From IMG/VR virus record IMGVR_UViG_2913167280_000001: 33,660 nt of DNA. The stretch is one strand, 5' to 3'. Within the stretch, counting starts at the first letter, position 1, and the number at the start of each line of letters is the position of its first letter. Made by a program: the position numbers and the translations under genes. This document shows, piece by piece, positions 6,390 to 33,660 of this stretch. The notes beneath the pieces are model-generated. The model had not been told where the DNA came from, made no database searches, and saw nothing but the letters and a program-made list of their open reading frames with translations. The DNA comes from a virus. Lineage: Duplodnaviria > Heunggongvirae > Uroviricota > Caudoviricetes.

Positions 6390-6465
6390 GTAAAGCTAAC
6401 AAATTGTTTCTATTAGCTTATTTCTTATAAACATCCACAAACTGTCCACATCAGTAATGATATAC

Positions 6466-6490
6466 AAGCCCGCAAAAAAAATGCGGGCTT
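6466..6490. terminator. hairpin downstream of the methyltransferase gene (possible bidirectional terminator)
   Basis: Perfect 9-bp stem AAGCCCGCA / TGCGGGCTT with an A7 loop, 4 nt after the methyltransferase stop; flanking sequence is only moderately T-rich. Confidence 0.4.
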
Positions 6491-6494
6491 TGTC

Positions 6495-7301
6495 TTATGT
6501 AGCCGAAATGGTTGTGGTGATGGTCCCCCGAAGCCGCTGCGCAGCTACCTCAAAATAATGATCACTGGTTTCTATACCAATAAATTTTCGCCCTGCTTTC
6601 AGTGCAGCCACACCCGTTGTCCCTGACCCCATAAAAGGATCAAGGACTGTTCCGCCACTATTCGCAGTTCTGACCAGTTCTGCCATAAGTTCTTCTGGTT
6701 TTCCGGTCGGGTGCATTTTCTTTGATGGGATAACCGGGAACGTCATGCAGCCGTCGAACGGTCCCGAAGGCGATTTATCTAAATGGCCTTTACTGCCCCA
6801 GACGATGTATTCGCACTGATGCCGGAAATACCCCGTATGGGGTGTTCGTGACCCCCTTCCTTTGTTCCACGCAATGATGCCGCGCCATGTGAAACCACTG
6901 GCCTGAAATGCATCAGTTAAAGCTGGCAGTTGTCGCCAGTCAGTAAATACCAGGGCATAACCGCCCGGCCTGACTGCGCGGTGTGCCTGTGCCATCCATA
7001 ATTGTGTCCAGTAAGCCCACGAACGGGCATCCATGTTTTCACCCGCAAACCCATCAAAGCGATGAAGGCTCTCGCCGTTCAGATATTTTGCGTGGCTGCC
7101 CTGGTTGGTGCGTCCGGCCTTGTGTGTCGCGCCCGAACTGTAAGGCGGGTCAGTGATTAAGGCATCAATACTTTCTGGCTCAATCAGCGGCAATATTTCC
7201 AGCGCATTCCCACGACAGAGCGTGGCATTGTCAGTCTGATAAACCTTAGTGTGTTCCGGTGTATGTGCTGGTTGGTGCTGGATTGTGATCCCCACGGTCA
7301 T
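6495..7301 (-). CDS. beta-class DNA methyltransferase (N6-adenine or N4-cytosine), 268 aa
   Basis: DPPY catalytic motif at residues 51-54 lies N-terminal to the AdoMet-binding motif DPFMGSGTT (beta-class order). ATG at 7299-7301 with a GAGGAG Shine-Dalgarno. Confidence 0.85.
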   Translation of the reverse strand: MTVGITIQHQPAHTPEHTKVYQTDNATLCRGNALEILPLIEPESIDALITDPPYSSGATHKAGRTNQGSHAKYLNGESLHRFDGFAGENMDARSWAYWTQLWMAQAHRAVRPGGYALVFTDWRQLPALTDAFQASGFTWRGIIAWNKGRGSRTPHTGYFRHQCEYIVWGSKGHLDKSPSGPFDGCMTFPVIPSKKMHPTGKPEELMAELVRTANSGGTVLDPFMGSGTTGVAALKAGRKFIGIETSDHYFEVAAQRLRGTITTTISAT

Positions 7302-7443
7302 AACTCCTCATGTGTGTGGGGTGCTCGATGGCTCTCGTTATCTGGTTAAGTGTTTTGCAGCGCGGACATTTTATTTCAATGTAGTGAAATGAGGCGCGGG
7401 CAAGTAGTTTGTTGCAATTTTTGCATCGTACATTTTGCGTCAT
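7246..7443 (-). CDS. com: Com-like zinc-finger protein (Mu com family), about 65 aa
   Basis: Sequence MTQNVRCKNCNKLL...IEIKCPRCK carries the Cys4 pattern remembered from Mu Com (RCKNCNKLL...IEIRCPRCK). It overlaps the first 56 nt of the downstream methyltransferase gene. ATG at 7441-7443; the track start at 7452 is GTG. Confidence 0.75.
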   Translation of the reverse strand: MTQNVRCKNCNKLLARASFHYIEIKCPRCKTLNQITRAIEHPTHMRSYDRGDHNPAPTSTYTGTH

Positions 7444-7488
7444 TTGCGGCACCTCTTGTGTGGTTACTGCTGCCGATATGATAACAAA

Positions 7489-7526
7489 TTGATCGCTTTT
7501 ATCGATCGGTTTTATATTATCGATCT
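7489..7526. promoter_or_regulatory. cluster of three GATC (Dam) sites upstream of com
   Basis: GATC at 7491, 7504 and 7522, within 35 bp and 48-82 bp upstream of the com ATG, in the divergent intergenic region. Confidence 0.6.
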
Positions 7527-7982
7527 GTGTTTTCTATTTTGTTCATGGGGCTGTTTGGCCTCACTTGTGCTGTAGTTTTAATGCGGAGGCTTCAAGTGCA
7601 ATATTTAAAGGGAACACCATTACATCAGTCCCGATTTGCAAGTGTCAGGATTACATGTCCTTCAGAGTTTTCCTCTTCAATAGAGGAGTATTTTCAAAAT
7701 AATGGATTTGATATAGGTCGTGTGACTTGCTTCTCTGCGAATGCACCCGATATGCTTAGTGTTATGTTCGAATTGCTCTCACGGGCGAAAAAATTTGCAG
7801 GGGTTATTATGGGGTTGTTAAACAGGAATGATGTTGAAGTTGAGCTACACCTTTGTACCAGAGATGATGAGCCTAAAACTGCAAAGCTCAAATTAAGAAA
7901 CCTCAAAGATGTTGATGCGTGTGAGCGCCTGATTGATAAACTGGCTACTGTGGTAATAACGTCAAAGAAAAATGAAGAATAA
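7527..7982 (+). CDS. hypothetical protein, AT-rich accessory gene (start uncertain)
   Basis: ORF clearly lower in GC than its flanks, divergent from com. The track start is GTG; a GTG at 7596 preceded by GGAGG is another candidate start. No recognisable motif. Confidence 0.5.
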   Translation: MFSILFMGLFGLTCAVVLMRRLQVQYLKGTPLHQSRFASVRITCPSEFSSSIEEYFQNNGFDIGRVTCFSANAPDMLSVMFELLSRAKKFAGVIMGLLNRNDVEVELHLCTRDDEPKTAKLKLRNLKDVDACERLIDKLATVVITSKKNEE

Positions 7983-8014
7983 TCGGTAAGCCAACCACCC
8001 TCTCTGGAAATAAA

Positions 8015-8043
8015 AAGCCCGCGACTAATCCTGCGGGCTTTTT
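8015..8043. terminator. bidirectional intrinsic terminator
   Basis: Perfect 8-bp stem AAGCCCGC / GCGGGCTT flanked by an A5 run upstream and a T5 run downstream, 30 nt after the stop of the 7527-7982 ORF. Confidence 0.75.
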
Positions 8044-8536
8044 GCATTCAGGTTTGCGAGATAGGGTGCCTTATCGACCTTAACCCTGGCAACCGATTGA
8101 CGGGGGATTGCTCCCCCGTCGCGGTTTCCTTACTGCTTACACTGTAAGAACGCCGCAAACTCCGCTCCCCAGAAGCTCATCCGTATCTCACACAGCGAAC
8201 CGTGTAGCATCCAGATGATGAGGATTGCCGTCACGCAGAACGTGATGGCTATAAGCGATTTTTGCGACATAGCACTTGCTCCTTTTTTTGCAAAGGCGCT
8301 AAGCTCTTGCCCGCTTATTGATTACGTTGTGAAACGCCCAGAGTTGAACATAAGGTTTAGTTGGGCCTTTTTACATCTGGCCTTCGTGTTTGCTGTCCAG
8401 CCATCAGTCGAAAGGCGTCCGCGTGAATTCTAGCCTGCTTTTTTTTCTTGCTTCAATACGTTGACTAATTTCAACACTCTGTTGTGCATATCCTGAACGC
8501 AGACATTATTCAGTCACGCATTTGATACATGCTTCC

Positions 8537-8561
8537 GCCGGCGTTCGCGCCGGTTTTTTTT
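8537..8561 (+). terminator. orphan intrinsic terminator inside an ORF-poor region
   Basis: GC stem CCGGCG / CGCCGG followed by 8 T; no convincing protein-coding gene upstream. Confidence 0.55.
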
Positions 8562-8941
8562 CGTCCTGTTGTTGCGTAGATCGTCATGTGCGATCGAGGC
8601 GCGGCATTGATCCTTTTTTCAGTTTAATTTCGACTCTCAATTTTACGCAGGCCGCGCCGCGTCTGGCTTCGTTGTTTGACGATTTTTCTATGCGATCCTT
8701 TCGCGATCGTGTCTCGCCCCACGCAAAGCATGAAAACTCTTTTAATATCATGCGGTTTCGTTGACCCCGCCATTTATGGGATCGTAAAAAACTCTCTGAA
8801 AACTGAAAAAAATTTCAAAGCGTGAAATTTCAGATCTTCGCTTTTCCCTCAGTTGCTGCGCGGGCTGGCTGTCATTTTTGCACGGCAGAAAACTGAAAAA
8901 CTGTTTCGACACAAAACCCGCGGGTTGGAGGGGGTAGCGCG

Positions 8942-8986
8942 GTTTACGTCACCTCACGCTTTACGTCACACCGTTTACGTGGTGTG
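8942..8986. repeat. iteron-like direct repeats and an inverted repeat
   Basis: TTTACGTCAC at 8943-8952 and 8960-8969, TTTACGTGGT at 8974-8983; inverted repeat CACACC-N8-GGTGTG at 8967-8986. Confidence 0.6.
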
Positions 8987-9038
8987 CGCATACAGCGCCG
9001 GAATGGCACGCAGAACGCATTAATCAGGTGGCAGATAT

Positions 9039-9064
9039 GAAAACGCACGACCGGAGCCGTGCGT
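9039..9064 (-). terminator. putative terminator at the end of the tail operon
   Basis: Stem ACGCACG / CGTGCGT followed on the minus strand by 4 T, about 40 nt after the stop of the last tail gene. Confidence 0.4.
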
Positions 9065-9102
9065 TGCGTGATGGGCGTTTATGGGGGTTTTATGCCCGGT
9101 GA

Positions 9103-10800
9103 TCAGGCGATAAGGTCACCGTATTTTTCGCGCAGGCTCGTAGCCTGTTTGGCGTCTGCGGCAAGTTCGCTGCTGTTTGTTGGTGCGCCGGTGTTGCTGT
9201 GGGTGTGGTTTGCAGTGTGTGTGGCCAGCAACTGAACCAGATCCAGAATATCAATCAACAACGTCAGCAGATTAAGTCCGGATTTTTCCCGTGAGCCACC
9301 GCGACCAATAAATACTGTCGGGGCTGTAAACTCCAGACCGCCGTCCGCCCGGCATGTTCTGCGGCCTCCCACGTTTTCAGTAAGGTCGCGCTCAATCGTG
9401 GATGTCGCCCCTTTGAGTTTAGTCAGCAAATCCTGCGCTACCATCTGGATATGCTCACCGGCTGCGATCGCATAATGACCAGTAGTAATGTGTTCTGTCT
9501 GGCCTGTCATCAGCTTGCTGGTTCCCAGAACGCTGGTTATGTCGTTTGCCTGTACTGTTGTTGTTCTGGTTGTTGTTGTGCGTTCTTCCTGATCGCTGTT
9601 AATGGTTCGCCTGGCTGAATGCTCCCTGATTTGCTGATCGGTTTCTCTGTGCCAGCTTCCGTCAGTCGTGACACGCTGAAACACTTCTGCGCGCTGTTGC
9701 TGCAGCTGTTCGCCGGGCTTTACATCAGGCAGGTTATGGCCAGCGGGTAAGATTTGCCTGATGACAGGTTTATCCGGTCGTCCTTCAATGTTGGATATTT
9801 CCACGATGGTGCCAGCCGGCGGGTAGGCAAAACATCCCGCCTCACTGCCAGCCATGGGGACGGGGAGCGGTACTGCCGGGTAAACGGGCGTATCGCTTTT
9901 ATCGTTGCCGTTCTCATCAAGCAACTGCACATCGACGGCGTAGCGTGGGCGGAAACTGTCGGCCACATCGCCCAGGGTGGCGGGCTCCGTTGGTGCAATG
10001 ACGCGCGCCAGCCGGGTATGTAGCGTACCGCTGGCCAGTTCCGGGAACTGTGTTTCCATTTGTCTGCGTAATGGTGATTTGGAAACAGGGCTGCCCGTGG
10101 CGGTAAGGCGCTCCCATGTCAGGGTCATTTTCTCGTTGTTGAGGGCTACACGGGTAATGCGCCCGGCTGGAAGGTTCACGCCCGGTCGCACAGTTTCCAT
10201 AAACATGATGTCGATGCTGTTTCCGCCGCTTTGCCCGAGTGTGTACTGTTGCGGAATATCCGGCATTGTAATGCTGGCAAATCGTGAATCAGCTGCACTT
10301 CCCACAAATACAGAACCGTCCGGCATAGGGTGCCAGACGTAATCGTTGATACTGAATGCTCGCCCCAGTTGGCTGAGCAGCTGTGCTCCGCTGCCGCTGT
10401 GGGTGATGTAGGGAGTTGGTATACTGGCATAATCCGCATCCGGAGTGATAAAAACGATACCGCTTTGTCGCCCCAGATTATCGAGTACCCCCCGCAACGT
10501 CGGGTGTTGCATGGAGCAAGGGAAATCAAAATCCAGCACAGCAGCCGCTTCACGAATAAAAAGGCGACGTGAGCCATTTTCAGCAGGTTGATCGCGCTCA
10601 ATGTAGCCGGAGAAATAGCGCCATGCTTCACCGTCACGGCCGAGATCAATTTGTACCATTGCGCCGGCAAGGCTGTGTTCGGGTGACAGATTGTTAACAG
10701 AAATGAAGCCACGACCGGCAGCATTCAGGGTAAGAACAAGGCTTATATCGGCAATTTCCACCCATTCGCCATTAATCATGCAGCGTTGTATCAATTTCAT
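9103..10800 (-). CDS. tail spike protein with a gpV/gp5-type OB-fold domain and an N-terminal extension (possible hub-spike fusion), 565 aa
   Basis: Residues about 306-350 (PVPMAGSEAGCFAYPPAGTIVEISNIEGRPDKPVIRQIL) resemble the conserved spike OB-fold motif; C-terminal HTANHTHS resembles the histidine tip motif of P2 gpV. Last gene of the tail operon, ATGA-coupled to the upstream gene. Confidence 0.6.
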   Translation of the reverse strand: MKLIQRCMINGEWVEIADISLVLTLNAAGRGFISVNNLSPEHSLAGAMVQIDLGRDGEAWRYFSGYIERDQPAENGSRRLFIREAAAVLDFDFPCSMQHPTLRGVLDNLGRQSGIVFITPDADYASIPTPYITHSGSGAQLLSQLGRAFSINDYVWHPMPDGSVFVGSAADSRFASITMPDIPQQYTLGQSGGNSIDIMFMETVRPGVNLPAGRITRVALNNEKMTLTWERLTATGSPVSKSPLRRQMETQFPELASGTLHTRLARVIAPTEPATLGDVADSFRPRYAVDVQLLDENGNDKSDTPVYPAVPLPVPMAGSEAGCFAYPPAGTIVEISNIEGRPDKPVIRQILPAGHNLPDVKPGEQLQQQRAEVFQRVTTDGSWHRETDQQIREHSARRTINSDQEERTTTTRTTTVQANDITSVLGTSKLMTGQTEHITTGHYAIAAGEHIQMVAQDLLTKLKGATSTIERDLTENVGGRRTCRADGGLEFTAPTVFIGRGGSREKSGLNLLTLLIDILDLVQLLATHTANHTHSNTGAPTNSSELAADAKQATSLREKYGDLIA

Positions 10801-11372
10801 GTTTTCCCTTCCTCTTTCACGCTCCCGATGCCAACAGCATCCAGACCAGAGCCAACGGCATCATTGATTTTTTTCCAGAACGAACTTTGCGTATTCATGC
10901 CTTTGTCTGGTGCCTGTTCGCTGCCATTCTGGGTCTGCTGTCTGGCGATGGTTTTCTGCGAACCGCTGCGTGCGGATGCTTTCTCTGGCACGCTTAATTT
11001 TTCCCTGAGAGTAAAGGTGATCTGCCAGTGCATTTTTCCCTGTTGTTCCGTGGCATCAATGCCACCAGAAAATACCCCCTGTCGCATATTGATTGCCTTC
11101 GCGGTAGCGTTAGCAATGCGATAGGTTTTTTTAGCACCGTTGCTTTCTGTTGCCTCCGCAAGCTGAAAAATACGGGTCAGAATAGCTTCATCGTTAAAAT
11201 CAATAACCCCCGACACGCGCAGCTCTTTAGCCTTGTTTCCCTGCTGGGCGCTCGTGGTGCTGGTTGACTGTCCGGACATATCTTTGTCCGGTAGTTGCAT
11301 GGTGGCGCTGACGGTGATGTTGCGCAGCAGAATGGCTTCTCCGTCAAGCGCAAGGACAATCATCTGGGTCAT
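10797..11372 (-). CDS. putative tail/baseplate protein, 191 aa (family uncertain)
   Basis: Translationally coupled between an unknown gene and the spike gene; no secure motif. Confidence 0.3.
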   Translation of the reverse strand: MTQMIVLALDGEAILLRNITVSATMQLPDKDMSGQSTSTTSAQQGNKAKELRVSGVIDFNDEAILTRIFQLAEATESNGAKKTYRIANATAKAINMRQGVFSGGIDATEQQGKMHWQITFTLREKLSVPEKASARSGSQKTIARQQTQNGSEQAPDKGMNTQSSFWKKINDAVGSGLDAVGIGSVKEEGKT

Positions 11373-12057
11373 GTAGTGCTTCCCTTAGTGATGAGAGATT
11401 ATCGCCGACGAACAGCATCACAGCTGTAAAAACCCACTCGGGGTGTGGGATGTTTTTTTGTATCAGCACTGCAGCCTGGCTAAGGGCTCCTTTGTAGCAA
11501 AAGCGCCACACCGGGCAAAATTTTTGCCGGAGTGCGGTCTGCTGATTAGCTATTTCCTGTAAGGCTTTATCTCTCGCATTCATGAACTGATGCAGTGATG
11601 ATGACAATGTTTCCGGTGATGTAGCGGCAGGAGTGGCTGCCTGTGCAATGGTTGCCGCCAGCGACATGCTGCGAGTGGTCTGTGTCGACAGCATTATCGG
11701 TTCTGGAAGTGATGTTGCCGGTCTGGCGGGGATTTGCATTCTGCTGATGGCCAGTGAAAGCTGGCTGGAGATCATGCGGGACATTCGTCCCACCTCCGGC
11801 AACGGAAATGCGCCTGAAAATTGCCTGGCGAGTGATAAAAACTCGCCAGCAGAAGGAGCGCAAAATAACAGCGCCACAATGTCCTTTTCCGTGTTTTCTT
11901 TCAGATAGGGTAAAAGTGCAGATACAGCATTTTCGGGGCTGAGATAACGCCCCGATGGTTTGATGTTTCCGGTATTTTCTGACCATGGATGAAGGCAAAC
12001 CACAGAGCATTTAATGTTCATGGCTGACGGGCGCAGAATTGCGTTTTCCCATTTCAT
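11344..12057 (-). CDS. hypothetical protein, 237 aa
   Basis: ATGA-coupled to the upstream fibre-chaperone gene; Ala/Ser/Thr-rich low-complexity central region; no recognisable motif. Confidence 0.4.
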   Translation of the reverse strand: MKWENAILRPSAMNIKCSVVCLHPWSENTGNIKPSGRYLSPENAVSALLPYLKENTEKDIVALLFCAPSAGEFLSLARQFSGAFPLPEVGRMSRMISSQLSLAISRMQIPARPATSLPEPIMLSTQTTRSMSLAATIAQAATPAATSPETLSSSLHQFMNARDKALQEIANQQTALRQKFCPVWRFCYKGALSQAAVLIQKNIPHPEWVFTAVMLFVGDNLSSLREALHDPDDCPCA

Positions 12058-12626
12058 TCTGACTCTCCAGCCTGAAAAGCGCGGATGTCGGCAAGATTAT
12101 TCAGACTATCCAGCACATCCTTCATCTGTCGCTGACGTCGATAAATTTCATCATTGCGGTTAACCTGCGCCTGCGCCATAGCTGTAGCCAGCCCCTCAAG
12201 CTCTGGCATCGACATCTTCACTTGCTGATTATCGGCGTCACCCCATGCCATAACGTCCCGCGCTGTGTCGGATTTTGATGCCATCACCACCGGATAAAGG
12301 CGGGTCAATGAGTCGGGGCCGGCGTTCCAGGTGCGACCGTTCCATTCGAACGTGAACGGCTGTGCTTCCTGTTCTGTGCGCCATGCCTCGATTTCCTGGC
12401 GTTTGGCGACTTTTGCTGCTTCCAGCATTTCAGGTGATACGGTGAACGGGGCAATCTTGCCCCATTTGCCGCTTTGCAGTTCCTGCCAGACGCGTTGGCC
12501 TGTCATTGCACTGTCTTCTGGTGTGGCTGTGTAGGGGACGGCTTCATCCATCCCTTCAAACAAAACTTCGCAGTCAATCGCACCGGATTCCAGATAGCGT
12601 GGATTCAGAATTTGTTGTATTTCCAT
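12054..12626 (-). CDS. putative tail fibre assembly/chaperone protein (second cassette), 190 aa
   Basis: Sits immediately downstream of tail fibre gene 2, by analogy with Mu U / P2 G; sequence differs from the first chaperone. Confidence 0.45.
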   Translation of the reverse strand: MEIQQILNPRYLESGAIDCEVLFEGMDEAVPYTATPEDSAMTGQRVWQELQSGKWGKIAPFTVSPEMLEAAKVAKRQEIEAWRTEQEAQPFTFEWNGRTWNAGPDSLTRLYPVVMASKSDTARDVMAWGDADNQQVKMSMPELEGLATAMAQAQVNRNDEIYRRQRQMKDVLDSLNNLADIRAFQAGESE

Positions 12627-12629
12627 TTT

Positions 12630-22175: not shown

Positions 22176-22180
22176 TGCTG

Positions 22181-24081: not shown

Positions 24082-24100
24082 GGTTTGTCTCCTGATTTTG

Positions 24101-25284: not shown

Positions 25285-25293
25285 ACCGTTACC

Positions 25294-25788
25294 TTAATCA
25301 ATCAGCGCGATGGATGCACGTGGTCGGCCCAGCAGCGCCCGCACCGCCATTGCCGCTTCAGCCAGCAACGTCCGGCGGCTCTCGCTGGCTTCTGATGAGG
25401 GCTGCGCCTCGCGTCGCCCCACGCTGGCAGATTCCGGCAAAAGATCGGCCTTTGCGCGGGCATACACAGCCTTGGTGTAAAGTGCTGTAATGTGGTTCTG
25501 CATCCGTTCAGGTTGTGCATCCGTATTGCGCGGCTCTGGTTGCAACACGGTGTAACCCGGAATATCGGCGGCCCGGGTGTAGCCCTGTTCCTGCCAGTAT
25601 TCACGGCGTGCAGCCAGTTCAGTGTTAATCTCTGTTACCGCGCAAAGCAGCGCCGTCAGCACCGTTTCGTGTGACGTGACGGCGGGGATGCTGCGGCTCT
25701 TTTCAAAATCGCCGGCATCAATATCCGGCCAGAATCCATCGTTCTGAATAATGGCCTGCTGATAGTGAATGCTTTTCCCGTCAAACAT
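25294..25788 (-). CDS. head completion/stabilisation protein (P2 gpL-like), about 164 aa
   Basis: Follows the M-like gene as in P2; start set at the ATG at 25786-25788 (GGAG upstream), because the longer track ORF overlaps the M gene by 97 nt. Confidence 0.55.
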   Translation of the reverse strand: MFDGKSIHYQQAIIQNDGFWPDIDAGDFEKSRSIPAVTSHETVLTALLCAVTEINTELAARREYWQEQGYTRAADIPGYTVLQPEPRNTDAQPERMQNHITALYTKAVYARAKADLLPESASVGRREAQPSSEASESRRTLLAEAAMAVRALLGRPRASIALID

Positions 25789-25886
25789 GCTCACTCCGGG
25801 GAAAGGCGGGCTGACCGGTTTCCGCAGTGTGCTGATGGCTTTTACCGGCACACCTCCACCGCGCCCGCCCGGTTGTTGGGAGTTGT

Positions 25887-26597
25887 TTACGTGCCCTGCA
25901 ACGCGCGCAGTCTTGCGGCAATGCGCTGGCGCAGGGTTTTCACCTGAATTTTGGGATGCAGCCAGGCAGCCCGTTCCAGGCACTGGTCGGCCTGTTGCAG
26001 TCTCTCCGGATCGTTAATTGCGCTGGCCTGTGGCTTGCCGTCATCGCCGCGCAGCAGCAGGATGCCTGCAAAGCGCCAGTAGCGGGCAGCAAGGCGTTCA
26101 TTCACGCGCCATTTGTCGCGGATTTTTTCAAACACCTGCTGAAAATATGGCGCGATACTGTTCCCGCGTTCAGCTTCGTTTTCTGCCCATTCAAGAATGA
26201 AATGGGCCACAAACGTTGGCAGCTCGCTTTTGAAGTTCTCCGGCGTCTTTTGCCCCTGCTCAATGGCAATGTCAGCCCACCGCAGCGCCATCTCAAACTG
26301 CCCGGTATCGAACAGCCAGATGATGCAGTACACCAGAATGGGATTCTGATAGACGCGTTCCCCCTCCAGATAAGCCTGTGCGTGTGGCAGCCAGCGGGGC
26401 AGCAGCGTGTTCCGCTTGAATTCCAGCTTGTCAGACAGCAGCTCCATGTTGTGCAGTTGTCTGACATCGTTATCCAGTGCCAGCAGCTTAATGTGCTGAC
26501 TCTCTGTGCTGACGGCGCGCCCGTCTGTTCTGGTCATGAGCGCCGCACGGCGCTCATCCATCTGTCGGGCACGTTGTCGCTGCATTGGCGTTGGCAT
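25887..26597 (-). CDS. terminase small (endonuclease) subunit, P2 gpM-like, 236 aa
   Basis: Block LLPRWLPHAQAYLE...ILVYCIIWLFDTGQFEMALRWADIAIEQGQKTP resembles the remembered conserved gpM-family region; sits in an O-N-M-L order. Confidence 0.75.
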   Translation of the reverse strand: MPTPMQRQRARQMDERRAALMTRTDGRAVSTESQHIKLLALDNDVRQLHNMELLSDKLEFKRNTLLPRWLPHAQAYLEGERVYQNPILVYCIIWLFDTGQFEMALRWADIAIEQGQKTPENFKSELPTFVAHFILEWAENEAERGNSIAPYFQQVFEKIRDKWRVNERLAARYWRFAGILLLRGDDGKPQASAINDPERLQQADQCLERAAWLHPKIQVKTLRQRIAARLRALQGT

Positions 26598-26614
26598 ACC
26601 GTGCGCTCCGTTTA

Positions 26615-27628
26615 TCAGGCGATGGTGACCGCAGACTCATCCACGGCAGCATATAAATCCGGATCGCCCAGGGCGTACCCCTCATAACGCCAGTATGAGT
26701 TTTCGAACTGTTTGCGATCGCCCACATCTTCTGCCTTGCGGCGGCGGGAGCCTTTCAGCGTCAGGATCTGCAGGTTTGGCAGCATGGTCACCACCATACG
26801 TTTGCCCGGCATAAACGGCGGAATGATGGCCTTGCGGCCCGCAATGTTCTTCGTCAGCAACTGTGCGGCCACTTTTTCGGTGGGCTTGTCCTCTTTGTTG
26901 TAGAGGCGTAGTTCTTCAGCAGCCACAAGGTCTGCGCCAACCAGTACAGTAAGGCGAGGATCGTTGTGATATTGCGCCGGGATATAAGTGCGGATCAGGT
27001 CTGAGGCCATGGCATCAAGGCTGACATAATCACCGCCTTCGCCCAGGGTAACGGCGTCCGTCAGAATACGGGAGGTATTGCCGGGCTGTTCTCCCCACTT
27101 TTTGGCGATTTCATGCCAGCCGACGTTAACGTCTTCGCCGTTCGGGTGACTTTCCGGGTCAGAGTTTTCAGCAGCCTCTTTACCGTTAAAGCCAATGCGC
27201 AGCATGTCCAGCGCAAAGTTGGTGACGGCGGCGGAGTTCATCAGGTTGAAAAATTCCTGCGGGCTGCCGGCATTCGCCCAGATGGCGAGTTGTTCCCAGG
27301 TGATCACGCAGCAGGAATCAGTTTCAACGAGTTTAAATTCGTTGCCTTTGATGCCCGAACCTTTAGCGAAACGACCGCTTTTCACGCGACCGGTGCGCAG
27401 CGTGGATTCGCCCACGGTGACGACCTGCCCTTGCGGGTGCGGAACGTCCATGCAGGTGATGAAACTCAGAAATTCCGTGCTTTCCAGCAGGGCTTTGCGC
27501 AGGGCAATACTGCGTGGCTCGGTCAGCGAAAAGAAACGATCGCTTGATTTCCCGCAGTCACTGAATGTTTTTTGCAGTTCGCTGATGTACTGATTAACCA
27601 GCTTTTGTGCTTCTGGTGTCATGTTCAT
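26615..27628 (-). CDS. major capsid protein, P2 gpN-like, 337 aa
   Basis: Conserved blocks GFNGKEAAENSD, VGW, LGEGGDYVSLDA and DPRLTVLVG match remembered P2 gpN. Confidence 0.85.
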   Translation of the reverse strand: MNMTPEAQKLVNQYISELQKTFSDCGKSSDRFFSLTEPRSIALRKALLESTEFLSFITCMDVPHPQGQVVTVGESTLRTGRVKSGRFAKGSGIKGNEFKLVETDSCCVITWEQLAIWANAGSPQEFFNLMNSAAVTNFALDMLRIGFNGKEAAENSDPESHPNGEDVNVGWHEIAKKWGEQPGNTSRILTDAVTLGEGGDYVSLDAMASDLIRTYIPAQYHNDPRLTVLVGADLVAAEELRLYNKEDKPTEKVAAQLLTKNIAGRKAIIPPFMPGKRMVVTMLPNLQILTLKGSRRRKAEDVGDRKQFENSYWRYEGYALGDPDLYAAVDESAVTIA

Positions 27629-27642
27629 TGCGTTCTCTCCGG

Positions 27643-28533
27643 TTACACCAGGTTAAAAGTTTCGCCACCGGCCGGATTGTTGCCCGGCAGCTTCGTGGCG
27701 TCCTTGCTGAGTTCAGCAAATGCGGTTTCCATACTGGTAACCTTCTCCGCGATGGCGTTCACTGTGGAGAACAGCTTTTCGCCCTGCTCGGTGGTCAGCG
27801 TGAAGGTTTTGTCGTCCTTGTTGTTCTGTTCTGCGTTGTCCTGCCCCTGATCGCCGGTGCTGCCTTCCGGCTTGTTATCACCGGTATCTTTCGGGGCATC
27901 CTTCGCGCTGAACTGCGCGACGTTTTCTTCCAGTTTGTTCAGGCGTTCGCCGGTTTTGTTGATGGCGTCCATCAACTGACCGAACTGTTTTTCGTTCATG
28001 TCGTTTTCCTGTTTGTTGCGTCCCACGGAGAAAAGGCCGGAAAAGAAACTGCGTTTGGCCTGCTCGTCGTCAGACTGCAGCGTGAAATTCAGTTCTTCTG
28101 CATTTCCCATGTGAATGGAGTCTCCCTGCGAAAATTGCAGGCGGGTGGTGTTGATGCTGGCCGGTGTGTCAGTCACGGCGATACCGGATACAAAGAATTT
28201 GCCTGTTCCCAGGTAGTTTTCCTTTACCTCTATGGAGGTGAAAAGTTTTTGCCCGGCCTCGTTGGCTTCGGTCAGAAAGCGGTTGGGTATCAGGCGGGCT
28301 TTCAGCTGCACTTTATCGCCGACTTTTTCCGCCTTCAGTGCATCAACAAGACCATAGTTATTGGTGAAAGCACGCCAGCCGGCGCTGGCATGAAACGGCC
28401 AGAGCATGGCGGTGTGTTCGTCCGGGTTATAAACCTCGGCGGCATCCGTCAGCCACTTTGGATCAATTTCCCGACCGTCGATGGTGGGGCCTGAAGTGGC
28501 TACGACCACCCAGTCTGTTTTCAGTTTCGACAT
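27643..28533 (-). CDS. capsid scaffolding protein, P2 gpO-like, 296 aa
   Basis: N-terminal region (TIDGREI, YGLVDALKAEK), TGKFFVSGIAVTDTPAS and METAFAELS match remembered gpO blocks; first gene of the operon divergent from the terminase gene. Confidence 0.8.
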   Translation of the reverse strand: MSKLKTDWVVVATSGPTIDGREIDPKWLTDAAEVYNPDEHTAMLWPFHASAGWRAFTNNYGLVDALKAEKVGDKVQLKARLIPNRFLTEANEAGQKLFTSIEVKENYLGTGKFFVSGIAVTDTPASINTTRLQFSQGDSIHMGNAEELNFTLQSDDEQAKRSFFSGLFSVGRNKQENDMNEKQFGQLMDAINKTGERLNKLEENVAQFSAKDAPKDTGDNKPEGSTGDQGQDNAEQNNKDDKTFTLTTEQGEKLFSTVNAIAEKVTSMETAFAELSKDATKLPGNNPAGGETFNLV

Positions 28534-28616
28534 CTGAATTAACCCGCTGATAAAAATTAAACTGGCGTTATTTAACGGAGAAATGAAAATGTCGTCATCT
28601 GATTAATTTCCGGTAC

Positions 28617-28642
28617 TTTCGGATATGCGTATATATCCGAAA
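28617..28642. promoter_or_regulatory. dyad-symmetric element in the divergent terminase / capsid promoter region
   Basis: Perfect 10-bp inverted repeat TTTCGGATAT-N6-ATATCCGAAA, with partial flanking extension (CGGTA / TACCG). Confidence 0.5.
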
Positions 28643-28727
28643 AATACCGAAAAGCGATATTCGTTTTTAAAAAAGCCTTTGCTGAAAATGCATAAATTAA
28701 AATTGCATCAGCAGGTGAGGTTTATTT

Positions 28728-30515
28728 ATGGCGTATTCTGATGAGGTGATTGCTGCTGCAAAATCGCTCTATCTGAAAAGGCACACACCAAAAGAAATAC
28801 AAAAGAAGCTCGGACTGAACAGCCCGCGAATTGTTTATTACTGGGCGACAAAGTTTGAGTGGTACACACAGCTTAATACTGAAGGCGTGGAAGATGTTAT
28901 CGCCCGTCGTCTCGCTGTACTGGCGGAGCGTGATCATAAAACGCCGGAAGAACACGATGAACTCGATCGCCTGATTGGCCATCACGTCAAACTGATGTCG
29001 GTCAGGAACAAGCACACGGAACGAATGGCCGAGATTGAACGAATGGGAGCGGATATTCCCCAATCTGGTCGTTATGGAAAAGAAGAACGCGGAGAAAAAG
29101 GTGCAGGTAAGAAAGAGCGCCCCCGCAAAGCTAATGACGTTTCCGGACTGACTGCTGAAAGTTTTGAGCCGTTTACGAAAAAGTTGTTTACTTACCAGTT
29201 GCTCCTGCGTGAAAACAAATTCCGCCGTGTACGCAACCTGCTTAAATCCCGCCAGATTGGGGCGACGTATTACTTCGCGTTTGAGGCATTTGAAGATGCA
29301 GTATTAACAGGCGACACACAGATATTTTTATCGGCATCAAAACGTCAGGCCGAAGTGTTCCGTACTTATATTGTAAAAATTGCACAAACAGAGTTTGGCA
29401 TTCCCATTAAAGGCAATCCGGTTAAGTTAAGTAATCTGGCTGAACTGTATTTTCTGGCGACCAACAGTAACACAGCGCAGTCAAACAGCGGCCACCTGTA
29501 TATTGATGAATACCTGTGGATCCCCGGTTTTCGCCGTCTCAATGAAGTGGCGTCAGGGATGGCCACCCATAAACACTGGCGCATTACCTATTTCTCCACG
29601 CCGTCATCCAAAACACACCAGGGTTACCCGTTCTGGTCTGGCGATGAATGGCGCAAAGGCGATCCGAAACGAAAAGGGGTTGAGTTTCCGTCCTTTGATG
29701 AGCTGCGCGATGGTGGGCGTGAATGTCCGGATGGTCAGTGGCGCTATGTGGTTACGCTGGAAGATGCCATTGCCGGCGGCTTTAACCTTGCTGACATCAA
29801 CGAGCTGCGCGAGCGATACAACGAAACAGCGTTCAATATGCTGTTTATGTGTGTGTTTGTGGATGACAAAGAGAGCGTCTTTAAATTTGATGATCTTGTG
29901 CGTTGTGGTGTTGATGTCAGTACGTGGGAGGATTTTCACCCGGAAGAGTCCATGCCATTTGGTAACCGTGAGGTTTGGGGCGGCTTTGACCCTGCGCGCT
30001 CCGGCGATAACGCCACATTTGTAGTGCTGGCACCGCCGCTGGTTGCGGCAGAACGATTCCGCGTGCTGGAAAAACACCACTGGCGCAGCATGTCATTCCA
30101 GTTTATGGCAGAGCGTATACGCAGCATTAAAGCACGCTATAACATGACGTTTATCGGCATTGACGTCACCGGTCTTGGCTACGGTGTCTTTGAGCTGGTT
30201 CAGGGATTTGCCCGCCGTGAAACAGTGGCCATTCATTACAGCGTGGAATCCAAAAACCGCCTGGTGATGAAGATGCTGGATCTGATTTACGCCAACCGTA
30301 TTGAGTGGGATGAAGAAGCCACGGATATTCCGGCATCGTTCCTGGCCATTCGTCAGGAATCCACCAACAGCGGCAATAAAGTCACTTTCACCGCCGAACG
30401 TAGCGAAGAAACCGGGCACGCTGACATCTTCTTTGCCATAGCTCATGCCGCAAGTAATGAACCCCTGAACTATAAGCACAAGCGCAAATCAACATGGATC
30501 CTGTCAGATGAGTAA
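28728..30515 (+). CDS. terminase large (ATPase) subunit, P2 gpP-like, 595 aa
   Basis: N-terminal region typical of gpP-family terminases; Walker B-like LYIDEY; AGGTGAGG Shine-Dalgarno; stop overlaps the portal gene start. Confidence 0.85.
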   Translation: MAYSDEVIAAAKSLYLKRHTPKEIQKKLGLNSPRIVYYWATKFEWYTQLNTEGVEDVIARRLAVLAERDHKTPEEHDELDRLIGHHVKLMSVRNKHTERMAEIERMGADIPQSGRYGKEERGEKGAGKKERPRKANDVSGLTAESFEPFTKKLFTYQLLLRENKFRRVRNLLKSRQIGATYYFAFEAFEDAVLTGDTQIFLSASKRQAEVFRTYIVKIAQTEFGIPIKGNPVKLSNLAELYFLATNSNTAQSNSGHLYIDEYLWIPGFRRLNEVASGMATHKHWRITYFSTPSSKTHQGYPFWSGDEWRKGDPKRKGVEFPSFDELRDGGRECPDGQWRYVVTLEDAIAGGFNLADINELRERYNETAFNMLFMCVFVDDKESVFKFDDLVRCGVDVSTWEDFHPEESMPFGNREVWGGFDPARSGDNATFVVLAPPLVAAERFRVLEKHHWRSMSFQFMAERIRSIKARYNMTFIGIDVTGLGYGVFELVQGFARRETVAIHYSVESKNRLVMKMLDLIYANRIEWDEEATDIPASFLAIRQESTNSGNKVTFTAERSEETGHADIFFAIAHAASNEPLNYKHKRKSTWILSDE

Positions 30516-31542
30516 AAAGAAAAAATACCCCGTGTTACACGATGGCGTGGCAAAAAAAACAGCCAGCAAAATGACTTTTATTGAATTTGGTGACCCGGAA
30601 CCGGTCGCTGCATGGGGCTGTTATTACGGCTCGCTCTGGGATGGCTATAACGGCTGGTACACGCCGCCCATTGAGCGCATGGATCTCGCCATGTTGTCCA
30701 ATATCGCACCGTATCACGGCGCGGTATTGCGTGCGCGCGTCAATATGATCATGCAGGGTTTTCGGGGTGGTGGTGGTATGACACACGCCGCCATGGCGGC
30801 AGCAGTAACCAATCTGCTGATATTCGGGGATATGGGGTTGCTTAAAGTGCGCAATGGCTTCGGTCGGGTGGTGCGCCTGCATACGTTACCTTCTCTGTAC
30901 CTGCGGCGTAACAACGAGGGTGGCACGGTGATTGTGCAGGCAGCACTGGAAGATCTCGTTTATCAGCCAGGCGAAGTGGTGTTCGTAGCCATTTATGACC
31001 CGCAACAGCAGGTTTACGGTGTCCCGGATTATATTCACGGGATGGAATCCGCCATGCTGAATGTGGATGCCACCCGCTTTCGCCGCAAGTATTACAAGAA
31101 CGGCGCACATCTTGGTTATATCCTGTATTCCACTGACCCGGACATGGATCCCGAGCTCGAGGCGGAATTCCGTAAAAAGATAGAGGCGTCAAAAGGGGCG
31201 GGCAATTTTAAATCCATGTTTATCAATATACCGGGCGGAGACAAAGAAGGTGTTAAGGTGATCCCTATCGGGGATTCAGGTACAAAAGATGAGTTCCTGA
31301 ATATAAAAACCATCAGTGCCCAGGATCAGCTCGTTGCGCACCGTTTCCCACCCGGACTTGCCGGCATCATTCCCGCAAATACGGCCGGGCTTGGTGACCC
31401 ACTGAAATCCCGCGAGGCATATTACAGGGATGAGGTTATCCCGATGCGCCGCCTGATTATGGAGGGGATCAACAGCGACCCGGATATCAGACGACTGGGG
31501 GAGGTGAAATTTATTCTTGATTTTGATGAACCCATGGAGTGA
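30508..31542 (+). CDS. portal protein, P2 gpQ-like, 344 aa
   Basis: Same length as P2 gpQ; coupled directly downstream of the terminase gene in the P-then-Q order of P2. Confidence 0.75.
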   Translation: MSKKKKYPVLHDGVAKKTASKMTFIEFGDPEPVAAWGCYYGSLWDGYNGWYTPPIERMDLAMLSNIAPYHGAVLRARVNMIMQGFRGGGGMTHAAMAAAVTNLLIFGDMGLLKVRNGFGRVVRLHTLPSLYLRRNNEGGTVIVQAALEDLVYQPGEVVFVAIYDPQQQVYGVPDYIHGMESAMLNVDATRFRRKYYKNGAHLGYILYSTDPDMDPELEAEFRKKIEASKGAGNFKSMFINIPGGDKEGVKVIPIGDSGTKDEFLNIKTISAQDQLVAHRFPPGLAGIIPANTAGLGDPLKSREAYYRDEVIPMRRLIMEGINSDPDIRRLGEVKFILDFDEPME

Positions 31543-31607
31543 TGTGCGGTATGGGGAAAGAGCGGGTAAAATCGGTGGCAGTAAAACGCTGTTCCGGGAG
31601 GTGGAAA

Positions 31608-31865
31608 ATGCGCAGACAGAAAGCGCGATGTCATTGCTGCGGTGCACATGCAGTGATTGAGAAAACAGCCTGGAAAACCGATCAGTTTGCTGATGTGTAT
31701 TACCGTTGCACCCGTCTCGAGTGCGGACATACCTGGGTGATGAATCTGACCTACTCGCACACACTGGTGCCCAGCGGGCTGGAGAATGGTGTGTTAAAGC
31801 TGTTGATTGAGCGGATGCGTCCGGAAGAAAAACAAATGGCTCTGGAGTTGTTGCAGGCCGGATAG
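31608..31865 (+). CDS. Ogr/Delta-family zinc-finger late-gene activator (putative), 85 aa
   Basis: Cys pattern C-x-C-C...C-x4-C (RCHCCGAH...YYRCTRLECGHTW) resembles Ogr/Delta; GGAGG Shine-Dalgarno before the ATG at 31608. The track ORF starts earlier at a GTG overlapping the portal gene. Confidence 0.55.
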   Translation: MRRQKARCHCCGAHAVIEKTAWKTDQFADVYYRCTRLECGHTWVMNLTYSHTLVPSGLENGVLKLLIERMRPEEKQMALELLQAG

Positions 31866-31885
31866 CTGACGCGCTTTGCTTGTCC

Positions 31886-31935
31886 AACCCGGAACGGGCG
31901 CACAAAGAATTTGCGCACCCGTTCCGGGTTTTCTT
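31886..31935 (+). terminator. long hairpin with T run after the ogr-like gene
   Basis: About 21-bp stem with two mismatches (AACCCGGAACGGGCGCACAAA / TTTGCGCACCCGTTCCGGGTT) followed by TTTTCTT; lies between the convergent ogr-like and Rrf2 genes. Confidence 0.75.
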
Positions 31936-32293
31936 ATTTAATGGCAGACAACTGATAATTTGTGTCTTCCTGCAGGCTGGTTAAAGAAATATTATCCAGT
32001 GCAGCCAGAATAACGTGCTGTGTATATAATCCGGAACATTTCATTGCCCGGACAATATCACCAACACTGTAATTTTCTTTTGTTGGGATATATCCACCAC
32101 CCGGGCCGCGTGTGGCTTTTACCAGGCTACTTTCCCGTAAATATCTGAATATTTGCTCCAGATATGACAGTGAAACGGTTTCTTTGCTTAATTGCCGGAG
32201 CGAGATTGGCTTTCCGGTGTACTGTTTCACAAATTTAATCATTACCATAACTGCAACTGATGCACGCTGGCTTCCGGAATTATCTTTCATCAT
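31934..32293 (-). CDS. Rrf2-family transcriptional regulator, about 119 aa
   Basis: Helix-turn-helix region with SLSYLEQIFRYLRESSLVKATRGPGGGY, matching the Rrf2/IscR signature; only one Cys after the HTH, so probably not an Fe-S type. Start set at the ATG at 32291-32293. Confidence 0.75.
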   Translation of the reverse strand: MMKDNSGSQRASVAVMVMIKFVKQYTGKPISLRQLSKETVSLSYLEQIFRYLRESSLVKATRGPGGGYIPTKENYSVGDIVRAMKCSGLYTQHVILAALDNISLTSLQEDTNYQLSAIK

Positions 32294-32304
32294 GATTACT
32301 TCCA

Positions 32305-32592
32305 TTAATGGCATAAATTGATGGAGCGGGTCAGTGAATAAAGAGGCAATACATTCCATCCCTTAGAGCGCCAGCTGTCTGCAACATCTTTACTTCTTGT
32401 TATCGCCGGCATTCCAATAGGATTATTTGCGTGCATCCATGCCACTGGCTCTGCTTCCAGTGATGCAAGTGCGATTTCCAGTGCGATTAACATATTGTGA
32501 TCGTCTTCATCAAGACCGAACGGGATGTCTTCGCGCCACGATTTAAACTCTGTGATTTTACGTTGTAACCATTCTTTGGTAATGGTGGACAT
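32305..32592 (-). CDS. hypothetical protein, about 95 aa
   Basis: ATG at 32590-32592 with an AGGAG Shine-Dalgarno 5 nt upstream; between the parR-like and Rrf2 genes on the same strand. No recognisable motif. Confidence 0.5.
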   Translation of the reverse strand: MSTITKEWLQRKITEFKSWREDIPFGLDEDDHNMLIALEIALASLEAEPVAWMHANNPIGMPAITRSKDVADSWRSKGWNVLPLYSLTRSINLCH

Positions 32593-32606
32593 AGTTACTC
32601 CTGTTT

Positions 32607-32921
32607 TCACTTCGGAAAAAACGCCTGAATATTCTTCTTCACCTGCTGCATATGGGGGGCGCTGTCTGCTGCTGGTTGCGCCGGTTTTTCAGGCTGTACT
32701 GGTAGCGGTGGCATCCTTATTTCGTCTTCTGACCATTCTGCCAGCGAATACGCCAACGCGGGGATGCGTTTTATAAGAGCCAGTCCGGCCAGAAAAGCCG
32801 CGCGTTGTGCGCGGCTGCGTTCGGAGGCTGGCAGGCTGTCGAGGTAACTGCACGCCTCCCGTTCGCTCTTGACGACGGCGGGCTTCAGATAGAAACTTAT
32901 CCGTCTGGTTGGTGTCGTCAT
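32607..32921 (-). CDS. parR: ParR-like partition adaptor protein, about 104 aa
   Basis: N-terminal YLDSLPASERSRAQRAAFLAGLAL resembles plasmid R1 ParR (from memory); AAGGAG Shine-Dalgarno 7 nt before the ATG at 32921, embedded in the parM 3' end. Confidence 0.65.
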   Translation of the reverse strand: MTTPTRRISFYLKPAVVKSEREACSYLDSLPASERSRAQRAAFLAGLALIKRIPALAYSLAEWSEDEIRMPPLPVQPEKPAQPAADSAPHMQQVKKNIQAFFPK

Positions 32922-32925
32922 TGAT

Positions 32926-33660
32926 TTACTCCTTGTCCATTGCGTACAGCCCATTAACCAGAGCAAACTGTGGCACCCCGTCCGCGATGAAAGTCGCATT
33001 AACTCCGCAGGCTTCGCGGATAGCGGGTGCCACAATCTCCGCTCCTCCACCTACAACCATCACCCGCCCGTAACCCGAAAAACCCGCCAGCGCGCGGATC
33101 ACGCGTTGTTTCAGTGTTTCCTCCTTTTCACGAATAACTGCCATCAGGCTGGCGTAATGCGCGTCATTGTGGATGTGCTGGCGCAACCAGGCTTCATCGT
33201 GGCGATGTTCGATAATGGTATTGGCGATGTGGTGACTGGTGCGCATACCGTTGGTGGCCATCACCGACAGCACGGCGTCGGCCATCAGAGAAACGCCTAC
33301 GTGTGGATCGCAAAACACCTGGCTGATACCTGCCAGTTGCCCCTGAACCTTTGCCACATCCAGCGTGGTTCCGCCCAAATCCACAATCAGCAGGGATTCA
33401 AACGGACTCATGTCAGCCAGTGCTTTAAAGCCAGCCGGAATGGATTCAGGCATAACCCGCACGTTACGGATAGTGAATGCCTCGCCGTTCTGGTACTCCA
33501 CCTGGCGCATAACGTTCGCTTTTTTGCGGTTGATGTTGGCCATGTCCGGCTGTGCGTTTGTGTCGAAATACTCGCTCAGTGGCAGGGTGACAACCACATC
33601 CACCTCCTGTGGCGTGATGCCTGATTTGACCAGCGCATGATGAATGGCAATGACATTCAC
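32926..33660 (-). CDS. parM: ParM/StbA-like actin-type segregation ATPase, C-terminal about 244 aa (N-terminus beyond the window edge)
   Basis: Actin-fold motifs LLIVDLGGTTLD and MVVGGGAEI, plus VMPESIPAGF, match remembered ParM of plasmid R1. The ORF is open to the window edge. Confidence 0.75.
   Translation of the reverse strand: MNVIAIHHALVKSGITPQEVDVVVTLPLSEYFDTNAQPDMANINRKKANVMRQVEYQNGEAFTIRNVRVMPESIPAGFKALADMSPFESLLIVDLGGTTLDVAKVQGQLAGISQVFCDPHVGVSLMADAVLSVMATNGMRTSHHIANTIIEHRHDEAWLRQHIHNDAHYASLMAVIREKEETLKQRVIRALAGFSGYGRVMVVGGGAEIVAPAIREACGVNATFIADGVPQFALVNGLYAMDKE

Follow-up and report, generated by a model that had tools for sequence, protein, structure and literature searches.

Gene content and organization of the locus

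The DNA analysed here, referred to as the window, is the whole 33,660-nucleotide stretch of the virus record IMGVR_UViG_2913167280_000001 (Caudoviricetes). Host genes ending with raiA occupy its left end, and the DNA from 6392 to the window end is a single continuous prophage as judged by open reading frame (ORF) listing, mapping of PGAP annotation, and Pfam and PHROG scans (Table 1). The window holds the left 27.3 kb of an element of ~35.8 kb. Nearest to raiA lie a methyltransferase gene, com, orf128 and hok, followed by ~830 bp of non-coding DNA. Homologues of orf35, orf34 and orf33 come next, then genes for a DUF4376 protein, fibre 2, Tfa, fibre 1, I, J, DUF2590, the tape measure, DUF6890, a chaperone, an M15 endolysin, a holin, the tube and the sheath. 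S-like, R-like, L, M, N and O follow on the minus strand, and P, Q and ogr on the plus strand. The last genes, again on the minus strand, are an Rrf2-family gene, a 95-codon ORF, a parR-like gene and parM, which is cut by the window end.

This element is very probably an apparently intact temperate prophage of the Peduoviridae that combines a late region of the HP1 type with P2-type early and integration modules and is inserted at the raiA terminator. A late module of HP1 type with early and integration modules of P2 type is a known class and not a novel mosaic. The Peduoviridae head and packaging set is present, comprising the capsid, gpO, gpL, the gpM/gpP terminase and gpQ. As the sequence-only reading of this DNA had stated, P and then Q lie on one strand (28728-31542, plus) and are divergent from O-N-M-L (28533 down to 25294, minus). 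The late activator domain Ogr_Delta is found in the window, and the replication domain Phage_GPA in relatives just past the window end.

Table 1. Features of the window, with position, strand and supporting match
Feature	Position	Strand	Evidence and remarks
clpB	447-3032	-	host gene
RyfD small RNA	3001-3139	-	Rfam RF02768, 125 bits; upstream of clpB; ordinary host feature
yfiH			host gene
rluD			host gene
bamD	4993-5730		host gene
raiA	6001-6342		host gene
raiA/RaiZ intrinsic terminator	6366-6391	+	terminator scan; 3' part 6372-6391 is the attL core CCTTCGGGCGCGTTTTTTGT
Phage att arm	6392-6494		two P2-type integrase arm sites, 11 bp apart, and a terminator
Arm site	6432-6439		reverse complement TGTGGATG; fits tgTGGaCa
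Arm site	6443-6450		reverse complement TGTGGACA; fits tgTGGaCa
Bidirectional terminator for methyltransferase gene	6466-6490		terminator scan
Methyltransferase	6495-7301	-	268 aa; Pfam N6_N4_Mtase 2.5e-33, PHROG 67; start overlaps com 3' end
com	7246-7443	-	Pfam Zn_ribbon_Com 9.8e-12; zinc-ribbon translational activator, Mu Com family
Predicted Com target and hairpin	7290-7336	-	GAGAGCC-AUC-GAGCACC (7336-7320); hairpin CCCCAC...GUGGGG (7321-7290)
GATC triplet	7491-7525	-	upstream of com; spacing 18 and 13 bp
orf128	7596-7982	+	128 aa; PHROG 14142 (unknown function) 7e-51; opposite strand, between com and hok
hok toxin locus	8130-8444	-	gene 8130-8270 plus upstream leader; Pfam HOK_GEF 2e-7
Candidate cos region	8925-8980		TTGGAGGGGGTAGCGCG, then three TTTACGT repeats
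orf35 homologue	9103-10800	-	565 aa
orf34 homologue	10797-11372	-	191 aa; Pfam HP1_ORF34 1e-53
orf33 homologue	11344-12057	-	237 aa, distal baseplate
DUF4376 protein of fibre 2 set	12054-12626	-	Pfam DUF4376
Fibre 2	12630-14681	-	Pfam Phage_tail_fib N-terminal domain
Tfa chaperone of fibre 1	14688-15239	-	Pfam Caudo_TAP
Fibre 1	15242-16942	-	Pfam Phage_tail_fib N-terminal domain
I-like	16939-17574	-	Pfam
J	17571-18755	-	Pfam
DUF2590	18748-19098	-	Pfam
Tape measure	19088-21184	-	Pfam
DUF6890	21184-21330	-	Pfam
Tail assembly chaperone	21372-21659	-	Pfam
M15 endolysin	21730-22071	-	Pfam Peptidase_M15_4
Holin	22181-22477	-	Pfam Phage_holin_3_2
Tube	22481-22936	-	Pfam Phage_HP1_Orf24 1e-50
Sheath	22933-24081	-	Pfam DUF2586 1e-127
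S-like	24101-24814	-	Pfam Phage_tail_S
R-like	24811-25284	-	Pfam P2_Phage_GpR
L	25294-25788	-	Pfam Phage_GPL
M	25887-26597	-	Pfam Phage_term_smal
N, capsid	26615-27628	-	Pfam Phage_cap_P2 2e-83
O	27643-28533	-	Pfam Phage_GPO
P, terminase large subunit	28728-30515	+	Pfam Terminase_6N/6C/5
Q, portal	30508-31542	+	Pfam Phage_portal
ogr, late activator	31608-31865	+	Pfam Ogr_Delta 9e-13
Rrf2-family regulator	31934-32293	-	Pfam Rrf2
95-aa ORF	32305-32592	-
parR/StbB-like	32607-32921	-	Pfam Plasmid_stab_B
parM	32926 to past window end	-	Pfam ParM

The late region is a single module of HP1 type

The late genes run Q-P/O-N-M-L-R-S-sheath-tube-holin-lysin-chaperone-tape measure-DUF2590-J-I-fibre-Tfa-orf33/34/35, which is the order in the gene tables of HP1 and Evevirus. 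Within it the block from the I-like gene to the chaperone is arranged as in HP1 orf26-30 and Evevirus gp06-11, and the lysis genes lie between tube and chaperone as in both. The order of HP1 (Hpunavirus; U24159, deposited 1995-96) is identical from Q/P to orf35, with the lysis genes and the baseplate after the tape measure included. The proteins of HP1-like late architecture are present, namely an orf23-family sheath, an orf24-family tube and the distal orf33-35 products, and the distal baseplate block (9103-12057) matches the baseplate family PHROG 2258 at 6e-232. The sequence-only reading correctly described the sheath and tube as unlike those of P2; they belong to DUF2586 and Phage_HP1_Orf24 and have no tblastn match in the P2-order phages Chuche (PP925824) and UTI89 PhiECO5. 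It was equally correct that the baseplate and fibre block (18755 down to 9103) follows the tape measure (21184-19088) in the direction of transcription.

When the sheath was searched by tblastn against 50,697 phage records, 76 records were retrieved, all of them HP1-like Peduoviridae. Identity was 55-56% to Evevirus/ESSI-2, ~55% to vB_YenM_324 and SW3, and 46-48% to HP1 (orf23), HP2, F108 and phiO18P. The capsid had the same best matches, at 57-59%. Head and tail proteins are 37-78% identical in amino acid sequence to those of Evevirus and 24-57% to those of HP1, and have 24-35% identity or no match in P2-order phages; for the distal orf33-35 proteins the values are 34-46% (Evevirus) and 24-47% (HP1). 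Capsid protein N is 59% identical to its Evevirus counterpart, 31% to that of HP1 and 27% to that of Chuche. The corresponding values for P are 59%, 53% and 35%, and Q is 50% identical to Evevirus, 54% to HP1 and 30% to P2-order phages. Taken together the head proteins are 43-59% identical to Evevirus versus 24-35% to P2-order phages. Because they rank like the tail proteins, head and tail form one co-inherited HP1-type late module.

The closest deposited phages for nearly all late proteins are ESSI2_ev239, ev015, ev040 and ev129 (Evevirus), Cronobacter phage ESSI-2 and Yersinia phage vB_YenM_324. Against ev239, J is 64% and the endolysin 78% identical. Evevirus shares the order of the element down to ogr directly after Q, but has another replication gene (annotated DNA primase), another early region, a single fibre and an O-acetyltransferase cargo. 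HP1 likewise has one fibre, and it lacks com, hok and parMR. The repressor of HP1 is of CI type and its integration target is a tRNA-Leu gene (PMC3448106), whereas the element has a P2-type C/Cox switch, P2-type arm sites and a protein-gene terminator as target. The element has two fibre genes in tandem, each paired with a separate chaperone-like gene, and their N-terminal collar domains share 38% identity. In the prophage of E. coli SC418, the closest relative among complete genomes, annotation marks fibre 2 as a pseudogene.

Prophages of this build have been described before. PhiECO4, PhiECO6, PhiYPS and PhiYE98, from E. coli and Yersinia, have a P2-type regulatory and integrase region together with O, N, M and L in the HP1 cluster, and PhiECO6 is listed at 35.8 kb, the size estimated for the element (PMC3448106). 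These prophages of Nilsson et al. 2011 (PMC3448106) have the same architecture as the element, a likeness drawn from the published description and not from sequence. The text of that paper does not mention raiA (yfiA) or a pheA site, and a survey of P2-like viruses (PMC13100340) does not mention HP1 and Evevirus by name.

Placement of the element depended on protein-level searches, megablast alone being insufficient. Megablast of the prophage against the same phage records returned only cargo and fibre fragments, and no record covered at least 80% of the query. Patches of 65-75% identity amount to ~4.6 kb for Evevirus and ~1 kb for HP1. In ICTV practice, a genus corresponds to at least ~70% nucleotide identity across the whole genome, a level that is reached with neither Hpunavirus nor Evevirus. 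There is no close nucleotide relative among the deposited phages. Under the customary threshold for a genus, no named phage in that collection represents the lineage of the element, which is probably an unnamed genus. The sequence-only reading had allowed that the element might prove a routine close relative of a described phage with the same gene order. The late-region order is indeed that of HP1, but capsid and sheath reach only ~55-59% identity to those of the closest deposited phage.

A near-perfect palindrome, TTTCGGATAT-GCGT-ATATATCCGAAA, nested in CGGTA...TACCG, occupies 28612-28643, midway within the divergent P/O promoter region. The late activator may bind there, and no second copy occurs in the rest of the window. 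In HP1 a 34% identical match to the Ogr protein of the element (tblastn, 80% of query) was observed at ~10650 between orf14 and Q, where no gene is annotated.

Integration at the raiA/RaiZ terminator

The right end of the element, which as previously noted lies outside the window, was read in assembly L013 (GCA_004745395.1, contig PDII01000025.1), from the same or a nearly identical strain. Over window positions 22609-33660 this contig differs by 2 homopolymer indels and 0 mismatches, and it supplies a further 8.6 kb containing parM, gpA, a Derepression-family gene, MarR, DUF4754, DUF4761, Cox, a C-type helix-turn-helix repressor, the integrase, attR, pheL and pheA. Pfam identified Int_N and Phage_integrase, HTH_3 and Phage_Cox in it. 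With this near-identical assembly and the empty sites described below the integration mechanism, which had been left unresolved, is now resolved.

The prophage is inserted between raiA and pheL, as the sequence-only reading proposed. Strain STEC313 has an insertion at the same site; the longest stretch that its two junction regions share is the 20 bp ACAAAAAACGCGCCCGAAGG, and the same 20 bp adjoin int and pheL in both STEC313 and L013. In the window this core, CCTTCGGGCGCGTTTTTTGT, occupies 6372-6391 and is the direct repeat common to attL, attR and attB. It consists of the descending arm and T-tract of the raiA terminator, forming the 3' half of the raiA/RaiZ terminator; the small RNA RaiZ, annotated in K-12, also ends at the core. 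In attR of STEC313 and L013 the order is phage...ACGCA-CCTTCGGGCGCGTTTTTTGT-TGACAGC...pheL. Phage DNA begins at 6392, at the junction 6391/6392, a single base away from the boundary of 6391 proposed earlier. The direct repeat is not inside 6391-6494, where it was to be sought, but just upstream of it, and 6392-6494 is the phage att arm.

Empty sites confirm this structure. In K-12 the terminator is followed by TGACAGCG... and then pheL, and in both K-12 and Escherichia sp. E1V33 TGACAGC, from the pheL promoter, comes directly after the terminator. The empty attB of E1V33 equals the left flank in the window joined to the right flank in L013. An uninterrupted raiA-pheL site was found in 5273/5426 complete E. 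coli genomes, and ~30 of the 5426 carry a prophage of this kind there. Insertion regenerates a slightly imperfect terminator and the pheL -35 box (TTGACA). A literature search on raiA, pheL and prophage returned nothing relevant.

The integrase, read in L013 and STEC313, is a P2-type tyrosine recombinase, 64% identical to its closest counterpart among deposited phages. The arm-site consensus of P2-type integrases is tgTGGaCa (PMC3448106). The int-side arm in L013 carries ATGTGGATG twice, as paired ATCCACA repeats, and the repeats of both arms are 11 bp apart. The features of P2-type integration are thus present: an Int_N-bearing tyrosine integrase, arm sites on both arms, a 20-bp core and Cox. 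Features of the HP1/186-type regulatory group sensu Nilsson 2011 (CI-type repressor, arm sites tgccGCCActt, integration into a tRNA gene) are absent; the element has a short C-type repressor (89 aa) with Cox, and its target is the raiA terminator. A tRNA gene as target was ruled out, the window having no tRNA genes.

The host flank itself (1-6391) is 95.4% identical to K-12 and STEC313 and 95.8-95.9% identical to both E. whittamii Sa2BVA5 and Escherichia sp. E1V33. A diagnostic 30-mer hit E. whittamii and E1V33, but at these identities neither is closer to the flank than E. coli. A typical E. coli is thus an improbable host, which may belong to a cryptic clade of Escherichia.

Recombination joints and cargo

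From 6532 to 33660 the element is 98.2% identical to, and colinear with, an E. coli SC418 prophage located between flk and pdxB. The SC418 prophage differs in integrase and repressor C, and the similarity ends at 6532, in the last codons of the methyltransferase gene, so the int/attP module has been swapped with both arms. For comparison of the early region the window was joined to L013. From ~32762, inside parR, through parM and gpA this composite is 95-96% identical in nucleotide sequence to Chuche and UTI89 PhiECO5. These two phages and P88/Xuanwuvirus share with the element the 5' part of parR, parM, gpA and several small genes at that level. Chuche and UTI89 PhiECO5 have the classical P2 late-gene order; in the late regions of all three the baseplate precedes the sheath, sheath and tube are of the FI/FII type, and identity to the element is 24-35% in amino acid sequence or there is no match. 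These comparisons place the early/late recombination joint inside parR at ~32762.

The cargo shows a similar pattern of exchange. The hok-com-methyltransferase segment is 85-97% identical to the cargo of Chuche, which is in the same place next to attP. Judged from these alignments, the modules are the early region, the late region, int/att and the cargo. The late module is related only to HP1, ESSI-2 and Evevirus phages, and the early, int/att and cargo modules are exchanged with P2-order coliphages. Mosaicism, as claimed by the sequence-only reading, does exist, but its joints are at the early/late border in parR, the int/att module and the cargo, not between head and tail. In E. coli H49 and H50 (NZ_CP043414.1, NZ_CP074819.1), occupied at the same raiA site, an 'ATP-dependent nuclease' replaces the methyltransferase cargo, suggesting that the interval next to att is a variable cargo slot.

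The hok locus, a putative type I toxin-antitoxin system, is part of this cargo, and 8031-8444, with the leader, is 85% identical in nucleotide sequence to the corresponding loci in Chuche and UTI89 PhiECO5. An Rfam search of 6300-9200 at E <= 1 gave only chance-level matches, with no Sok and no hok mRNA; at the gathering threshold the only match was RyfD in the host flank. Given its position within the cargo, orf128 is a candidate for a role in defence or counter-defence; it has no Pfam match. None of orf128, Rrf2, the 95-aa ORF, hok and parR matched a defence family in PADLOC. P2 has a known hotspot of accessory and defence genes between gpA and gpQ (PMC9122126), which corresponds to the parM, parR, 95-aa ORF and Rrf2 interval of the element, where PADLOC matched nothing. 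The ParM/ParR partition pair next to gpA is of the StbA/StbB type, and ParM is 97-98% identical in amino acid sequence to that of Chuche and UTI89 PhiECO5.

A Mu-type com operon with predicted control of a methyltransferase gene

A Mu-style com module at the host-proximal end, noticed in the sequence-only reading, is borne out. Com is 59.5% identical to Mu Com and 98.5% identical to Chuche Com. Upstream of com, the GATC triplet has the same spacing as the sites under Dam/OxyR control at the Mu mom promoter, and similar flanking sequence; the window contains one instance of the pattern, versus 0 in 100 shuffles. SELEX defined a bipartite Com-binding motif, NGAGNNCC(N)2-3GAGNNCCNN, and a model with the start codon inside a hairpin has the same source (PMC6483171). 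The predicted target at 7336-7320 fits this motif, and the hairpin at 7321-7290 encloses the Shine-Dalgarno sequence (7309-7304) and AUG (7301) of the methyltransferase gene. In an alignment with Mu com-mom, GCCNNCGAGCAYCCCAC...GUGGG is conserved. The hairpin is homologous to the translation-inhibition structure of Mu, and at the sequence level the com module as a whole is truly Mu-derived. Relative to Mu, the element lacks ~42 bp of the promoter and C-activator region. Mu is a transposable phage, whereas the element carrying com is a P2-family phage.

The gene under this predicted control differs from that of Mu. In place of Mom, an adenine modifier of acyltransferase fold, the element encodes an N6_N4 methyltransferase with DPPY near the N-terminus followed by FMGSGTT. 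Its best solved relatives are DpnA and CcrM. The enzyme is 97% identical in amino acid sequence to its Chuche counterpart, and the cargo 96.7% identical to that of Chuche. It is a beta-class amino-methyltransferase, probably acting on N6-adenine. In FluMu, Pnm1 and B3, com is also followed by a methyltransferase gene instead of mom, and the enzymes characterised there, the Hia5 family, resemble Dam and carry DPPY around residue 194 (PMC3299994). Because DPPY is near the N-terminus in the element, its enzyme is of a different class.

By this scheme transcription of the operon would be sensitive to Dam and OxyR, Com would open the hairpin that hides the ribosome site of the methyltransferase, and the enzyme would methylate phage DNA for protection from restriction. 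We consider it tentative, and on balance rather unlikely, that the complete Mu mom control cassette (Dam/OxyR-type GATC triplet, Com, Com-binding hairpin and start-codon hairpin) was transplanted onto a beta-class adenine methyltransferase and serves as portable anti-restriction cargo among P2-order and HP1-order Peduoviridae. In that reading tight control by Com suggests that the enzyme may be toxic or broadly specific, like Hia5, and it would then represent a second, unrelated family of low-specificity N6-methyladenine methyltransferases.

Candidate cos region

The non-coding interval between hok and orf35 probably holds cos, near 8925-8980, a placement in which we have moderate confidence. 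In HP1, cos is in the equivalent interval between orf35 and attP, and the TTTACGT motif also flanks the annotated HP1 cos. The last ~75 bases of the ESSI2_ev239 record (NC_049392.1 / LR597637.1) are contamination, consisting of Nextera adapter, CTGTCTCTTATACACATCTCCGAGCCCACGAGAC...ATCTCGTATGCCGTCTTCTGCTTG, and then poly-A. Phage sequence ending in ...GCAGGCGGGGGC runs straight into this adapter, which incidentally marks a physical DNA end, and ...TTGGAGGGGG at 8925-8934 in the window aligns with it.

Predicted life cycle and alternative explanations

If the element is active, the P2-type integrase would bind TGTGGA(C/T) arm sites on both att arms and recombine at the core, with Cox acting as excisionase and as switch partner of the C repressor. 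gpA would start rolling-circle replication and Ogr would turn on the late operons. The P and M terminase would package DNA from cos, which as in HP1 probably lies between orf35 and the cargo, near 8925-8980. O, N, L and Q are predicted to build a P2-family head, joined to an HP1-type contractile tail with two alternative fibres, and the holin and M15 endolysin would lyse the cell.

Several observations weigh against an intact prophage with this life cycle. We infer phage activity from open reading frames only, and the right end is taken from a near-identical assembly and not from the window. In L013, gpA is split into ORFs of 432 and 533 aa by a +1 in an A-run at L013 7373-7376. Spanin candidates overlapping the endolysin and holin genes (21678-21980, 22081-22467) have no Pfam match. 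Searches with the P2 or 186 cos sequence, allowing up to 6 substitutions, found nothing better than chance. The P2 Ogr late-promoter motif TGT-N12-ACA has 8 matches in the window versus 8.9 expected, none of them in the P/O or late intergenic regions. The RNA fold around the methyltransferase start (-19.2 kcal/mol, z = -2.2 versus shuffles) has only modest excess stability.

The gpA frameshift, the failure to recognise a spanin and the second-fibre pseudogene in SC418 speak for a defective or cryptic prophage, whether domesticated, replication-dead or tailocin-like. However, the frame in L013 is shifted by +1 within an A7 run (AAAAAAA in L013 versus AAGAAA in relatives), and the assembly has two more homopolymer +1 indels, at window positions 24214 and 28698, one of which shortens the S-like gene to 218 aa. 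For these reasons the frameshift is probably a sequencing error, although it may be a real defect. Genes mapped onto the window from the 98% identical annotated SC418 prophage, a set without the second tail fibre gene that is a pseudogene there, were 33/33 open with no internal stops, and both att sites, int, cox and C are present. The family is also widespread, and conserved at 95-99% over many strains at several insertion sites, suggesting recent mobility. At least 80% of 12000-33660 is covered in 41/5426 complete E. coli genomes, and in the index of an assembly collection 121 blocks contain the exact ParR protein. A defective element is therefore improbable. Extrachromosomal maintenance as a phage-plasmid through ParM/ParR partition, to which the parM and StbB/ParR-like genes next to gpA might point, is less probable still. 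The same gene pair occurs in Chuche and UTI89 PhiECO5. The att junctions are clean, the element is integrated here and in every relative examined, only 5/1815 matching places are on plasmids, and gpA is the only plasmid-type replicon gene.

The mosaic of the sequence-only reading would be a novel one across families, its P2 head and packaging region having recombined with an unrelated tail and a Mu end. Pfam P2-family domains in the head genes, a sheath and tube without P2-order homologues, and the Mu-derived com region agree with such a mosaic. Yet the same head-tail order occurs in HP1, HP2, F108, phiO18P, K139-like phages, ESSI-2, Evevirus and vB_YenM_324. The head proteins are no closer to P2-order phages than the tail proteins are, and 9103-32350 has nucleotide similarity to P2-order phages only in fibre fragments. 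The joining of a P2 head to a foreign tail is contradicted by these data, and we give an inter-family mosaic the smallest chance of the three alternatives. An apparently intact temperate prophage with an HP1-type late region remains by far the preferred explanation.

Implications

Since the head-tail combination is the normal HP1-type layout, prophages of this kind should not be flagged as inter-family chimeras. Only two points are new, and mildly so: the Com-controlled methyltransferase cargo and the attachment site in the raiA terminator. The raiA/RaiZ terminator is documented here as an attachment site at which both raiA and the pheL promoter are left intact. The methyltransferase under predicted Com control offers a testable anti-restriction device. 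The element also illustrates cleanly how P2-order and HP1-order phages exchange modules, the joints being sharp both in parR and where the methyltransferase gene has its 3' end.

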